A model generated the notes under the pieces. It was not told where the DNA came from. It saw only the letters and a list, made by a program, of their open reading frames with translations, and did no database searches. A program made the translations under genes and the position numbers. Below, piece after piece: positions 1-23,316 of a DNA stretch of 64,000 nucleotides. The number at the start of each line of letters is the position of its first letter. Positions within the stretch are counted from its first letter, which is position 1. Origin of the DNA: a virus; IMG/VR virus record IMGVR_UViG_3300023174_005819, positions 23,240-87,239 of that record; one strand, 5' to 3'.

Positions 1-231
1 TTTTGACTCCAAATTTTACTGCGATCTCAGCAGTAAACGGGCCATCGCACTTATGGATCAGAGGTAGCTTCGATCACTACATTCTGCGATGCCTATAGCT
101 ACATTTCCTTATTTAGCCATATAATGTACAAATTAAGGTTTTAATAGTTGTCAGCCCTTATGACATTGCTATCTCAGGGATTGATAGTTGATTTTTTGAC
201 ATCAACAAACTGCTCTAATTGGGAACTATGT
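1..231 (-). ncRNA. Putative structured non-coding RNA of unknown family, 3' part beyond the window edge
   Basis: No long ORF. At least six inverted repeats: 15-22/30-37, 43-49/85-91, 94-101/114-121, 149-153/161-165, 169-173/183-187, 187-192/201-206. A TTGACA-N17-TAGTAT promoter points into it. Confidence 0.6.
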
Positions 232-237
232 ACTTAC

Positions 238-266
238 ATACTATTCTAATTTTCAACTTTTGTCAA
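238..266 (-). promoter_or_regulatory. sigma70-like promoter for the leftward ncRNA
   Basis: TTGACA (266-261), 17 nt spacer, TAGTAT (243-238) on the minus strand. Confidence 0.7.
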
Positions 267-339: not shown

Positions 340-727
340 GGGCGCGTACTGGTTTCGATTTTAGAAATCGGAATTAAAATGCAAGTGGAGGTTGAATCGA
401 GGACTCCTTAAAAAGTTTCACTTATATTAACTGCCAAAACAGCAAAATATAAAGGTCATATTTCTGCAAGAGCTTCTCTTGTTGAATTGACCGCTTCTGT
501 AGCCTAAGTTCTACAGCGTGACTACCTTGACACATCTATTGGATAGTTGCGTAATTAGATGTTTGAGTATAATAAGTTTTTTTATTCTTTTTATATTCAA
601 TATTCAAAATAAAATCGCTAAGTATGTTTGTTCTTTATCTATACAAAGCTAAAAACAAAAAGAACTAAACTTGTAGTATTTTAATTTAGATTTTTAAAAG
701 ACAAAGGTTCAATTCCTTTCGCGTCCA
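340..727 (+). ncRNA. ssrA: tmRNA (transfer-messenger RNA)
   Basis: Acceptor stem GGGCGCG/CGCGTCC with the G3-U Ala determinant and discriminator A; T-arm AAAGG-TTCAATT-CCTTT (703-719); 5' TGGTTTCGA; long P2 helix; tag frame 433-507 starting GCC after TTAACT; CCA not encoded. Confidence 0.93.
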
Positions 728-759
728 AGTAAACGAATCTCTTAGCCTCCAATTTTATA

Positions 760-1128
760 GTGAAATCAAAAAGAAATAAAACAAGATTAGATCAATATAG
801 TCCATTTAAATACTCTTTAAATAAAGCTAGATCACGAAGTAAATCTAGAAATGAAGTTACAGATTTAACTCTTGAATATTTAAAAGAGATTTGGGAAAAT
901 CAAAAAGGATTATGTTCATATACTAATATTAAAATGGAACTACCAAGAAGCTCCCAAGATGAAGATATCAAGAAAAGTCCAACCAAACTAAGCCTTGATA
1001 GAATTGACCCAAGTATAGGATATATAAAAGGTAATGTTGAATTTGTATGTTATTGCGTTAATGTTATGAAAAATGATTTCACAAAAGAACAGATGGTACA
1101 TTTTATAAATCAAATTAAAAATAATTGA
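760..1128 (+). CDS. HNH-like (His-Me finger) endonuclease, possibly a free-standing homing endonuclease
   Basis: Q.GLCSYT...SLDRIDPSIGYIKGNVEFVCYCVN motif. Confidence 0.75.
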   Translation: MKSKRNKTRLDQYSPFKYSLNKARSRSKSRNEVTDLTLEYLKEIWENQKGLCSYTNIKMELPRSSQDEDIKKSPTKLSLDRIDPSIGYIKGNVEFVCYCVNVMKNDFTKEQMVHFINQIKNN

Positions 1129-2440: not shown

Positions 2441-3277
2441 ATGACAACCGATAATACATCTTTAGAGAGCATTTGGAGCCAAACTGTTGGAGAAGATCCT
2501 ACAGACCCATATCTTAATTGTAACTCTTGCGAACTAGATTGCGCTAATCAAGCATTAAATGATGCAGCCGCTAATGTTTCAAACTTTCCATTTAACATGA
2601 AAGCAGCTGCCAAAAATGATTTTCTTGCTCCACAACCAAGCGCAATGGATATTCTTCGCCAGGAAGAGCACCTTAGAGCTTTTAACGCGGACCAGGCTGC
2701 AAAAAAAGGAGCAAGAGCAATGGTAGACTTGGGGCCCAGTCGAAGGTATCCTATCTCATTTTCTCCAAATAGAGGAGGTGGTGGAAGCCGATCATCTAGC
2801 GGATTTGAAGCAACTTCTATTGGTTCTGAAAATCCTTTAGGCCAAACAGGATCAGTAGGATTTCGATGGTCTGGTAATGAAGTTAGCTGGGATCCAGATA
2901 ATTTTCTTAACGAAACTAGTGGCAGCGTAGTAGTCGTTCCAGAGCAAGGAATTACAGATGTTGGAAATGCTGCTGGCAGTTTGTTGAGAGAAACTTTTAA
3001 TCCAACTCCCGATCCAGTTACAACTGTGAGTTGTTCAACTGACACAGCAGCAGCTACTGCTGCTGTTCCTGCCACTCCAACTACAAGTGGCCTTGGCGCT
3101 ACTGGATCACAATCAGCAGTAAGTGCAACGCAAGGAACCACAGTTACTGGAGGAGGAGGATTGAATCAAGCTGGCGGAGGATCAGTAAGTAGCGTAAAAA
3201 CTGGAGTAAATAATAATGGTGTCGCAACTCAAGGCAATGGGGGCTTCAGAGGGGTCAAAGCAACAATCAGGCCTTAA
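2441..3277 (+). CDS. Hypothetical Gly/Ser/Thr/Ala-rich low-complexity protein
   Basis: 278 aa ORF co-oriented with its neighbours; CNSCELDC near the N-terminus; T/A/G-rich C-terminal half. Confidence 0.55.
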   Translation: MTTDNTSLESIWSQTVGEDPTDPYLNCNSCELDCANQALNDAAANVSNFPFNMKAAAKNDFLAPQPSAMDILRQEEHLRAFNADQAAKKGARAMVDLGPSRRYPISFSPNRGGGGSRSSSGFEATSIGSENPLGQTGSVGFRWSGNEVSWDPDNFLNETSGSVVVVPEQGITDVGNAAGSLLRETFNPTPDPVTTVSCSTDTAAATAAVPATPTTSGLGATGSQSAVSATQGTTVTGGGGLNQAGGGSVSSVKTGVNNNGVATQGNGGFRGVKATIRP

Positions 3278-3329
3278 AAGATAATTTTTAGATATATAAA
3301 TATTACATTCATAGAATACTAAATAATCT

Positions 3330-22615: not shown

Positions 22616-23316
22616 AAAATATAGCTCTCACTTCTGCGATAAATTATAATGATTATTTAAAAATTTTCAAACAACATAATTATAATTATTTTGATGAAAT
22701 ATATGTAGTTACAGATACAAAGGAAGATAATGAACTACAAGAGATATGTAGTGATTCTAAATTTAAATTAATAAAAACTGATAAATTTTATACTTTTGAA
22801 AATCAACCAGCAAAATTCAATCGAGGCGCAGCTTATACATACGCTATGAGTTTATTGCAAAATCCAGAAATAATTACAATTATAGACGCTGATACTCTAC
22901 TACCAGAGAGTTATCATAGTATATTTACAGAATTAAAATATAAAAAATTTGATTATATGGTGAGTGCTAGAAGATTCGTATTAGAAACTTATCAAGATTA
23001 TTCAAAAGTCTTTTTAGAAAAAGATCCAAATTATAAATTGGAAATAAGAAGTTCTGATTGGGGTTGGGGATATTTACAAATTTTTCATGCAAAAAGTAAA
23101 TGGTTAAAAAACGGGCTTGTATATCCAGAAAATTATGATTGTGCAGTATCAGATTTTATGTTTAGAAGGCAATTTGGATGGCATATTTTTAGACAAGATA
23201 CAGAAGAACATTATTGGGATCCAGAGGCGCAAGTATGCTTAAGGCAATTTCCAGTATATGGTCTAGGTCCAAATAATATTAATTCAAGAGGTCGCCGTGC
23301 ACCAGAATTTAAATAA
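22612..23316 (+). CDS. Putative GT-A glycosyltransferase
   Basis: FNRG...IIDAD, GYLQIF, D.MF. Confidence 0.55.
   Translation: MKNIALTSAINYNDYLKIFKQHNYNYFDEIYVVTDTKEDNELQEICSDSKFKLIKTDKFYTFENQPAKFNRGAAYTYAMSLLQNPEIITIIDADTLLPESYHSIFTELKYKKFDYMVSARRFVLETYQDYSKVFLEKDPNYKLEIRSSDWGWGYLQIFHAKSKWLKNGLVYPENYDCAVSDFMFRRQFGWHIFRQDTEEHYWDPEAQVCLRQFPVYGLGPNNINSRGRRAPEFK

Follow-up and report, generated by a model that had tools for sequence, protein, structure and literature searches.

The first 266 nucleotides (nt) of a 64,000-nt stretch of viral DNA from IMG/VR record IMGVR_UViG_3300023174_005819 (positions 23,240 to 87,239; the whole stretch is called the window) very probably contain the promoter and the 5′ three quarters of a stand-alone noncoding RNA (ncRNA) gene, which is carried on the minus strand and belongs to a family absent from Rfam 15. 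As judged by comparison of related phage sequences, this RNA would be about 311 nt long and would adopt a compact fold with two pseudoknots, and it carries two copies of one short sequence, referred to as the twin boxes. A mechanism in which the RNA acts as a two-site scaffold is proposed more tentatively and is rated somewhat below an even chance. The statement as a whole, a new stand-alone structured RNA gene together with a trans-acting two-site scaffold, is held to be slightly better than even.

The window corresponds to G000:C1:23240-87239 of the 87,239-bp record, which is rated 56% complete. Because the element touches the left edge of the window, the contig was read 1.5 kb further left, as a first-pass annotation made from the window alone had proposed, and the remainder of the element was found there. 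In the extended locus (L001), a window position equals the L001 position minus 1500. The ncRNA gene (G000:C1:23160-23470) extends about 79 nt past this edge, to about −79 in window coordinates. The annotation had placed the 5′ part of a large ncRNA in the window; the 5′ part is indeed there (window 1-231, minus strand, the first ~231 of ~311 nt), and the RNA is mid-sized rather than large. The element lies in a gap without open reading frames (ORFs) that runs from the start of a minus-strand ORF of 328 amino acids (aa; L001 361-1347) to a transfer-messenger RNA (tmRNA) gene. In agreement with the annotation, only 31- and 33-aa plus-strand ORFs overlap window 1-266, and the GC content is 0.38 in window 1-200 compared to 0.25-0.29 in the stretches that follow. 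Insertions and deletions of 1 and 2 nt occur in the element, which has no ORF common to the lineages described below.

Distribution and lineages

A search with the neighbouring 328-aa protein led to 34 related IMG/VR loci, and in nine of these blastn detected the element at 88-95% identity. When 23 further records were searched at the DNA level, 13 turned out to contain the element (12 full-length copies at 92-97% identity and one cut 3′ part), and the neighbour protein in these records was only about 74-80% identical. Two independent exact 18-mers retrieved 45 and 47 IMG/VR contigs, essentially the same set, and the 38 unique full-length sequences from these contigs are designated lineage A. 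With a gapped tmRNA pattern, 77 loci were obtained, of which 42 were new, and a covariance model built on lineage A (R1) gave full-length matches in six of these 42 (114-135 bits, one 45 bits; lineage A, 400 bits). Patterns specific to individual lineages yielded additional members. Finally, a lineage-blind degenerate gapped pattern, which recovers 56 of the 59 known sequences, detected 67 IMG/VR and 71 Joint Genome Institute (JGI) metagenome stretches with no obvious chance matches.

Altogether, the full element was found at 150 loci on IMG/VR and JGI metagenome contigs, and these copies represent 98 unique sequences. These sequences fall into at least four diverged lineages, namely A, B (with variant B2, locus L166), C, and D (with variant D2, loci L165 and L167). 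Every copy sits on a viral or metagenome contig. An exact 18-mer had three matches in GTDB genome contigs, and these are regarded as chance matches since none carries the element according to R1. A blastn search of the region against 50,697 phage records returned zero matches, and the phage lacks a close relative among isolates, its DnaE-type polymerase showing less than 32% identity to all of these records.

The element is better conserved than its surroundings. Among 31 sequences with both genes (465 pairs), the element had a mean pairwise identity of 0.923 and the tmRNA one of 0.854, and the spacer between them showed a mean identity of 0.830 (325 pairs). Judged by these identities, the element is under stronger constraint than the adjoining tmRNA.

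Promoter, extent, and transcribed strand

The first-pass annotation had noted a near-consensus promoter upstream of the element, and this observation was strengthened by the relatives. The −35 hexamer TTGACA (window 261-266, minus strand) and the −10 hexamer TAGTAT (window 238-243, minus strand) are separated by a 17-nt spacer, and the unit as a whole (window 266-238) matches the consensus at 10 of 12 positions. A promoter scan alone was not above chance, with 4 promoter-like sites compared to 5.3 ± 2.6 expected. The arrangement TTGACA-17-TAnnnT, which is of the sigma-70 type, is kept in all 28 upstream flanks read, which include 22 of 22 from lineage A and 6 of 6 from diverged homologues, and the sequence of the spacer varies. 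Locus L032 is truncated before the −35 hexamer and lies outside this count.

The conserved region begins immediately downstream of the −10 box and stops just past the second twin box and a purine-rich tract, and both flanks diverge at once. Both ends of the ncRNA would be placed by this pattern, with the start at a conserved ACAUA near window position 231. In G000, the R1 model matches C1:23148-23474 on the minus strand, in line with these limits.

Folding of the single sequence gave z scores of −2.05 for the minus strand and −2.52 for the plus strand and did not tell the strands apart. With single-sequence folding unremarkable and the promoter scan at chance level, the case rests on the comparison with relatives. 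At seven positions, most or all lineage-A sequences have a G-U pair, four of these positions being invariant, and the opposite strand would have A-C there. Thus, the transcribed strand is taken to be the minus strand of the window. Together with the minus-strand promoter and the location of the tmRNA on the plus strand, this supports the earlier suggestion that the element is transcribed divergently from the tmRNA.

Secondary structure and pseudoknots

The predicted fold consists of 12 nested helices, with two-part hairpins counted as two, and two pseudoknots (PK1 and PK2). At least six helices had been noticed in the window, and Pa, Pb, Pd, Pe, Pg, and Ph, in addition to PK2, lie there. The fold was evaluated on a MAFFT alignment of the 38 lineage-A sequences, in which hairpin Pi was split into two stems to give 85 pairs in 15 helices. 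In these closely related sequences, standard pairs occupied 99.6% of 3215 cells, compared to 28-47% when the 3′ partners were slid by 1-3 columns. Double changes were found at 14 pairs as opposed to 1-5 pairs when slid and 6.7 ± 1.3 in shuffles, of which 0 of 500 reached the observed number, and the covariation score was 0.112 versus 0.014-0.039 when slid. The double changes sit in Pa, Pb, Pc (two pairs), Pd2, Pe1, Pg2, Ph2 (six pairs), and Pi. Compensatory changes above the controls and on one strand, as are expected of a structured ncRNA, were therefore found among the homologues, both within and between lineages.

All helices are given on the minus strand, from the 5′ end of the RNA. Pa is a 5′ hairpin of 4 bp (window 212-226) with pair types UG/CG/UA, UA/UG/CG, and CG/UG in lineage A; it becomes GCUU/AAGC in lineage B and CCGC/GCGG in lineage D, and it reads GCCU/AGGC by eye in lineage C, where three of the four pairs score as unpaired in the structure-blind alignment. 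Pb, a local hairpin of 6 bp (187-206), shows a GC to AU double change in locus L058, and lineages B, C, and D appear by eye to have different stems that are still complementary. Pc is a long-range helix with its 5′ strand at 178-186 and its 3′ strand outside the window at about −8 to −16. In lineage A, it shows double changes from AU to GC and from CG to UA, and in lineage D it pairs in the same columns with other letters; helices of 8-12 bp can be read by eye in lineages B, C, and D.

Pd is a two-part hairpin with a conserved CAA bulge (143-173), the loop of which (153-159) forms the 5′ strand of PK1; in Pd2, UA and CG pairs occur in 24 and 14 of the 38 lineage-A sequences, respectively. Pe (107-138) includes the segments CCUUA and UAAGG, which had been proposed to form a kissing loop or pseudoknot. 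These segments instead make an ordinary stem, Pe1, with a closing pair that covaries as CG/UA/AU and also occurs as UG. Whole-stem replacements of Pe were read by eye in lineages B, C, and D, and lineage D is without the inner part. Pg (44-90) is a two-part hairpin in which Pg1 is invariant in lineage A and Pg2 has AU in 32 and GC in 6 of the 38 sequences. Between lineages, Pg1 is exchanged as UA/CG and CG/GC/AU in B and C and is fully complementary with other letters in D (by eye), and the stems of Pg2 are replaced in lineages B-D. Ph, also a two-part hairpin (5-43), has double changes in 6 of the 8 pairs of Ph2 in lineage A and is shortened to a GAAA-capped stem in lineage D (by eye). In the structure-blind alignment, Pa, Pd1, Pd2, and Pg2, Pg1 in lineages A-C, and Pc and Pe1 in lineages A and D pair with other letters.

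Both pseudoknots are supported by exchanges between lineages. PK1, the 3′ strand of which falls beyond the window, joins the loop of Pd to the strand after hairpin Pi. All lineage-A sequences share one version (AAGGGCU/AGCCCUU), which is replaced by GAAGGCU/AGCCUUC in B, AUAGGCU/AGCCUAU in B2, GAAGACU/AGUCUUC in C, and CGGAGCU/AGCUCCG in D. Over the 98 unique sequences, there are five fully complementary 7-bp versions in addition to one variant with an end mismatch, found in some members of D, and both-sided exchanges occur at 5 of the 7 positions. The contact between CCCU and AGGG that had been suggested from the window dissolves in this fold, as the CC belongs to Pc and AGCCCUU is the partner of the AAGGGCU loop. 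In PK2, a junction strand (GUAGCU, 97-102) pairs with the loop of the inner stem of Pg (64-69). Its versions are GUAGCU/AGCUAC in A and GUGGCU/AGCCAC and GUGGAU/AUCCAC in C; a single mismatch is present in B, in 4 of 10 sequences of C, and in D. GC takes the place of AU in lineage C and of CG in lineages B and D. The pairing of PK2 is also visible in the structure-blind MAFFT alignment.

Several other pairings were considered and set aside. Two helices proposed by RNAalifold from close relatives, 14-24/289-298 and 27-38/303-314, fail the between-lineage comparison and were dropped because the 5′ hairpin, Pb, and PK1 better explain the changes between lineages; the complementary replacements of Pb in B, C, and D argue against the long-range pairing. 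A third pseudoknot, between the loop of Pb and the strand before the second box, and a switch based on competition of the two box units for the 5′ strand of Ph1 are both not kept across lineages, as read by eye.

Expression of the element

There is a hint that the element is transcribed. Twenty-four sequencing runs from 18 studies, 20 of them on record as RNA, hold shares of 0.07-0.16 of a 1-kb stretch, and most of the RNA-library runs holding this stretch are labelled lake, river, or fresh water, as are two of the four mapped runs (lake or river). The expression data consist of unstranded assembled contigs, which show no starts, ends, or strand. The first-pass annotation had suggested looking for metatranscriptome coverage from about position 231. 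Contigs cover the element in three of four RNA libraries at a depth of 4-29, compared to hundreds to thousands for the tmRNA, and one mapped run (X3) leaves the element without cover.

Four points count against the reading of the element as a discrete RNA gene with a defined fold. First, the RNA-library contigs overrun both ends of the element, one of them into the promoter, so that DNA carry-over or read-through is possible. Second, no terminator-like site was found downstream, and the 3′ end is placed from conservation only. Third, the lineage-A sequences are closely related, and the cell counts therefore overstate the number of independent events. Fourth, where MAFFT misaligned the helices, replacements were read directly from the sequences by eye and are not counts made by a tool.

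The twin boxes

An exact repeat of 10-12 nt, with the two copies 63-75 nt apart, is present in 98 of 98 unique sequences. In mononucleotide shuffles of the same stretches, 44 had no repeat of at least 6 letters, 50 had one of 6-7 letters, and 4 had one of 8-9 letters. Box 1, in the junction between Ph and the 3′ strand of Pc, begins inside the window (1-4, minus strand) and extends past position 1 as far as about −7. Box 2 belongs to the 3′ tail and falls wholly in the left extension of the contig, at about −68 to −79 (minus strand). The boxes are predicted to be single-stranded in the modelled fold.

The sequence of the boxes differs between lineages and is identical within one RNA. Lineage A contains two copies of AAAGAAAAGUU, and the form found in most phages is Y-A(A)-AAGAAAAGU. 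Three core versions were identified, AAAGAAAAGU in A, B, and C, AUUGGGAAGU in D, and AUUGGGAAUU in D2, each of which occurs twice per RNA. Furthermore, the two copies are preceded by the same pyrimidine, either C or U, in every pair printed, and both states occur within lineage A and within lineage C. In locus L151, the C form results in an A-C mismatch in Ph1 (by eye).

Two identical single-stranded sites that lie 63-75 nt apart and flank a defined segment in 98 of 98 sequences could also mark a precursor, cut at both boxes by one endonuclease so that a segment of about 60 nt (the Pc 3′ strand, Pi, and the PK1 3′ strand) is freed or the 3′ end is trimmed. With no terminator past box 2, some 3′ processing would be needed in any case. 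However, this segment holds one strand each of Pc and PK1, and its excision would destroy the conserved fold; moreover, a nuclease site need not stay identical down to the flanking pyrimidine across lineages. Precursor processing of this kind is considered improbable.

A function at the level of DNA (a replication origin, iterons, or a region bound by proteins, for example) would likewise account for the 10-12 bp direct repeats and the numerous inverted repeats of this ORF-free region, all the more as transcription is only hinted at. Yet the compensatory changes keep pairing with G-U tolerated on one strand only, two long-range pseudoknot pairings covary, the promoter is kept at a fixed distance, and the spacing of the boxes varies from 63 to 75 and allows no single helical phase. 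These features make a DNA element highly improbable and favor a structured RNA.

Relation to known RNA families

Compared to Rfam 15 at the gathering score, the window contains only the tmRNA, and the same was true of L001 (3.7 kb) at E ≤ 1. A permissive cmscan of the 356-nt element against the 4227 families at E ≤ 10 returned Termite-leu at 16.6 bits (gathering score 51) and SNORD65 at 12.4 bits (gathering score 41). The library includes GOLLD, ROOL, OLE, HEARO, raiA, RNase P, group I and II introns, 6S, and the signal recognition particle (SRP) RNA. ARAGORN found no tRNA-like domain in the element, only the neighbouring tmRNA, and the tmRNA model gave no match on the element. The annotation had seen neither a tRNA cloverleaf nor an RNase P signature and had guessed at an undescribed class, and these searches agree with it on both counts.

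The element stands beside RNA genes and is multi-branched, pseudoknotted, and of a size like that of RNase P RNA, and it might on these grounds be a strongly diverged relative of RNase P RNA, a group I intron, 6S, SRP RNA, or tmRNA that Rfam misses. This is extremely improbable, as the permissive search of 4227 families gave only the 16.6-bit Termite-leu and 12.4-bit small nucleolar RNA matches, ARAGORN gave no tRNA-like domain, and the P4 signature of RNase P was not seen when the element was compared by eye with the consensus. As for tmRNA (RF00023), both are stable, pseudoknot-rich RNAs of similar size with their own promoters in the same phages, but the ncRNA has no tRNA-like domain and no reading frame for a tag.

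To our knowledge, few mid-sized or large structured phage RNAs without a known job are on record, with ROOL and GOLLD as the main examples. Full-text searches on phage tmRNA and on structured phage noncoding RNA, supplements aside, gave no description of the ncRNA. Parts of one paper describe a two-piece phage tmRNA with a glutamine riboswitch, which differs from the ncRNA reported here (PMC9004378). The family is new relative to Rfam 15 and the literature searched.

In passages of Kretsch et al. (2025; PMC12286853), ROOL and GOLLD are described as pseudoknotted phage RNAs of unknown function that lie near tRNA islands and form RNA-only homo-oligomeric cages, with many GOLLD members longer than 800 nt. 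Going by these passages, the ncRNA shares with ROOL and GOLLD that it is encoded by phages as its own transcription unit, lies beside tRNA-type genes, is pseudoknotted, and has no linked protein gene. The location near tRNA-type genes is a likeness of context and not of homology. In contrast, the ncRNA gives no covariance-model match, is built of other helices, and measures about 311 nt, and the twin single-stranded boxes that it carries are not mentioned for ROOL or GOLLD in those passages of PMC12286853.

The ncRNA could, like them, assemble into an RNA-only particle with the boxes or palindromic loops as subunit contacts. Besides the likenesses reported in parts of PMC12286853 (a phage-borne, pseudoknotted RNA beside tRNA-type genes) and the lack of a constantly linked protein gene, short palindromes were seen by eye in the apex of Pe in lineages A, B, and C. 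Nevertheless, no Rfam model matched at E ≤ 10 beyond noise, the RNA is far below the >800 nt given there for many GOLLD members, chance alone would produce AT-rich palindromes of 4-6 nt, and the boxes are identical rather than self-complementary and cannot pair with each other. A self-assembling particle therefore appears unlikely.

Genomic context

The gene that lies downstream of the element is not constant. In this genome and in locus L054, it is a co-directional gene for the 328-aa membrane or coiled-coil protein, about 60 nt away. In 6 of the 13 loci printed, it is a convergent ORF of 171 aa that ends within a few bases of the element, and in loci L071 and L069 it is a co-directional gene for an unrelated methyltransferase. 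In 12 of the 23 further records, a full-length element lies several kb from the membrane-protein gene, the thirteenth copy being the cut 3′ part. The element could be a cis-acting 5′ leader or riboswitch of the downstream gene, here that of the 328-aa protein, and the co-directional arrangement with no terminator in between fits this in the present genome and in L054. However, the convergent ORF, the methyltransferases, and the separation by several kb all speak against it; no constant class of co-directional gene, as would be expected for a riboswitch or leader, was found. Such a cis-acting role is thus very improbable, and a stand-alone gene is preferred.

The association with the tmRNA gene is closer. 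According to ARAGORN, a tmRNA is adjacent and divergent in 50 of 65 loci with the full element, usually 292 nt away, and Rfam adds two adjacent loci, L055 and L065. A tmRNA was present in 17 of 17 longer element-bearing records and in 0 of 5 related records without the element. The tmRNA as an obligate partner was rejected, as three short element-bearing fragments show none. The two genes are 6.5-16 kb apart in lineages B and D and in genome G006. Among 16 further tmRNA-bearing records (2-71% complete), 15 had no R1 match, and none had a divergent promoter upstream of the tmRNA. A small ORF of 69 aa, or 78 aa from an upstream TTG, separates the ncRNA promoter from the tmRNA in most relatives and is co-directional with the tmRNA (e.g., L054:4832-5041, minus strand, and L081:5603-5839, plus strand). 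Its product had no Pfam or PHROG match, and it was rejected as a partner because it is absent from G000 and from the 100%-complete relative G024.

A possible two-site scaffold

In the proposed mechanism, the fold would serve as a rigid scaffold that acts in trans and exposes the two identical boxes as single strands, the first in the junction that precedes the 3′ strand of Pc and the second in the 3′ tail. Both boxes would bind the same sequence-specific partner, and the RNA would consequently hold or sequester two copies of this partner during infection. Since the boxes change in concert down to one flanking pyrimidine, a nucleic acid that binds by base pairing would be favored as the partner, and it is considered somewhat more likely than a dimeric protein.

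Sponge RNAs such as CsrB and RsmZ, which act on CsrA, and CrcZ, which acts on Hfq/Crc, use repeated single-stranded motifs for one protein. The ncRNA would resemble them in that it would act in trans and present one short single-stranded motif more than once. It differs in that there are two copies only, set in a rigid double-pseudoknot fold, and in that the motif varies between lineages and is identical within one RNA. The box of lineage D is not A-rich and hence does not fit an Hfq-type ARN or AAnAAnAA site.

A number of results are unfavorable to pairing with a nucleic acid or to the scaffold as a whole. The concerted change of the boxes could equally reflect co-evolution with a protein. 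When the element and the tmRNA were compared over their whole length, 23 of 60 shuffles did as well in duplex energy, the longest Watson-Crick run was 8 compared to 7-14 in shuffles, and no consistent site for the boxes was found in the tmRNA across four lineages. In four phage genomes, the complement of the box occurs at 4-6 sites each, including the two of the gene itself, versus 2-6 for a reversed control. Matches of the boxes to 40 unique tRNAs of the loci reach at most 6-7 nt, which is at chance level, and do not follow the lineages.

Searches for two protein domains were also negative. The reverse transcriptase (RT) domain RVT_1, which a template-jump or RT-template function of the boxes would call for, is absent from 5 of 5 records, one of them 100% complete, with a host enzyme outside this search. 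No SmpB domain was detected in four related records, one of which is rated 100% complete.

In another version, which is considered unlikely, the boxes would be guide-like segments that pair with two copies of one pyrimidine-rich target in host or phage RNA or DNA. The predicted target would be 5′-ACUUUUCUUU in most lineages and 5′-ACUUCCCAAU in lineage D. If true, the target could be read from the sequence of the box, and the ncRNA would represent a new functional class of phage RNA, bivalent and re-programmable, by which two targets are bridged or sequestered.

Neighbouring genes and other features

The tmRNA gene that lies divergent to the ncRNA (window 340-728, plus strand) was detected by both Rfam and ARAGORN; it is a neighbour and is not shown to be a partner. 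It encodes a 24-codon tag, AKTAKYKGHISARASLVELTASVA, and phages of lineage C have a different tag, AKTAKLKGSFSLRVSHNKKHLIAA. The tmRNA contigs found at a depth of hundreds to thousands in the RNA libraries show at least 88% likeness to it. Directly 3′ of the tmRNA, an ORF of 122 aa (window 760-1128, plus strand) matches endonuclease, endonuclease VII, and HNH families of PHROG (best match phrog_3322, E 3.6e-26), and by these matches it probably encodes a free-standing homing-type nuclease. Further along, the GC content rises to 0.42-0.50 at window 2500-3300 inside a genome of GC 0.25-0.33. This stretch overlaps an ORF at 2441-3277 and a long antisense ORF at 2548-3141 and may be recently acquired DNA.

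Genes for tRNA-Ser and tRNA-Asn lie near the element in relatives. In many related phages (L011:1743-1908, L014:532-695, and others), a tRNA-Ser with the unusual anticodon ACU (A34) stands beside tRNA-Asn(GUU). An unrelated viral contig matched by the tmRNA pattern (L120:2074-7975) carries a tRNA island for Gly, Trp, His, Asp, and Tyr together with a tmRNA, the tag of which has 32 residues, AKNINSVVSGIDALLAKANKVVAARKSAAVFA.

Implications

ROOL and GOLLD have each opened new RNA structural biology. The present family combines a compact double-pseudoknot fold of ~311 nt with boxes that are identical within one RNA and differ between lineages, and this combination offers a handle for finding the partner. 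The ncRNA may be relevant to the way in which these phages take control of translation or RNA metabolism.

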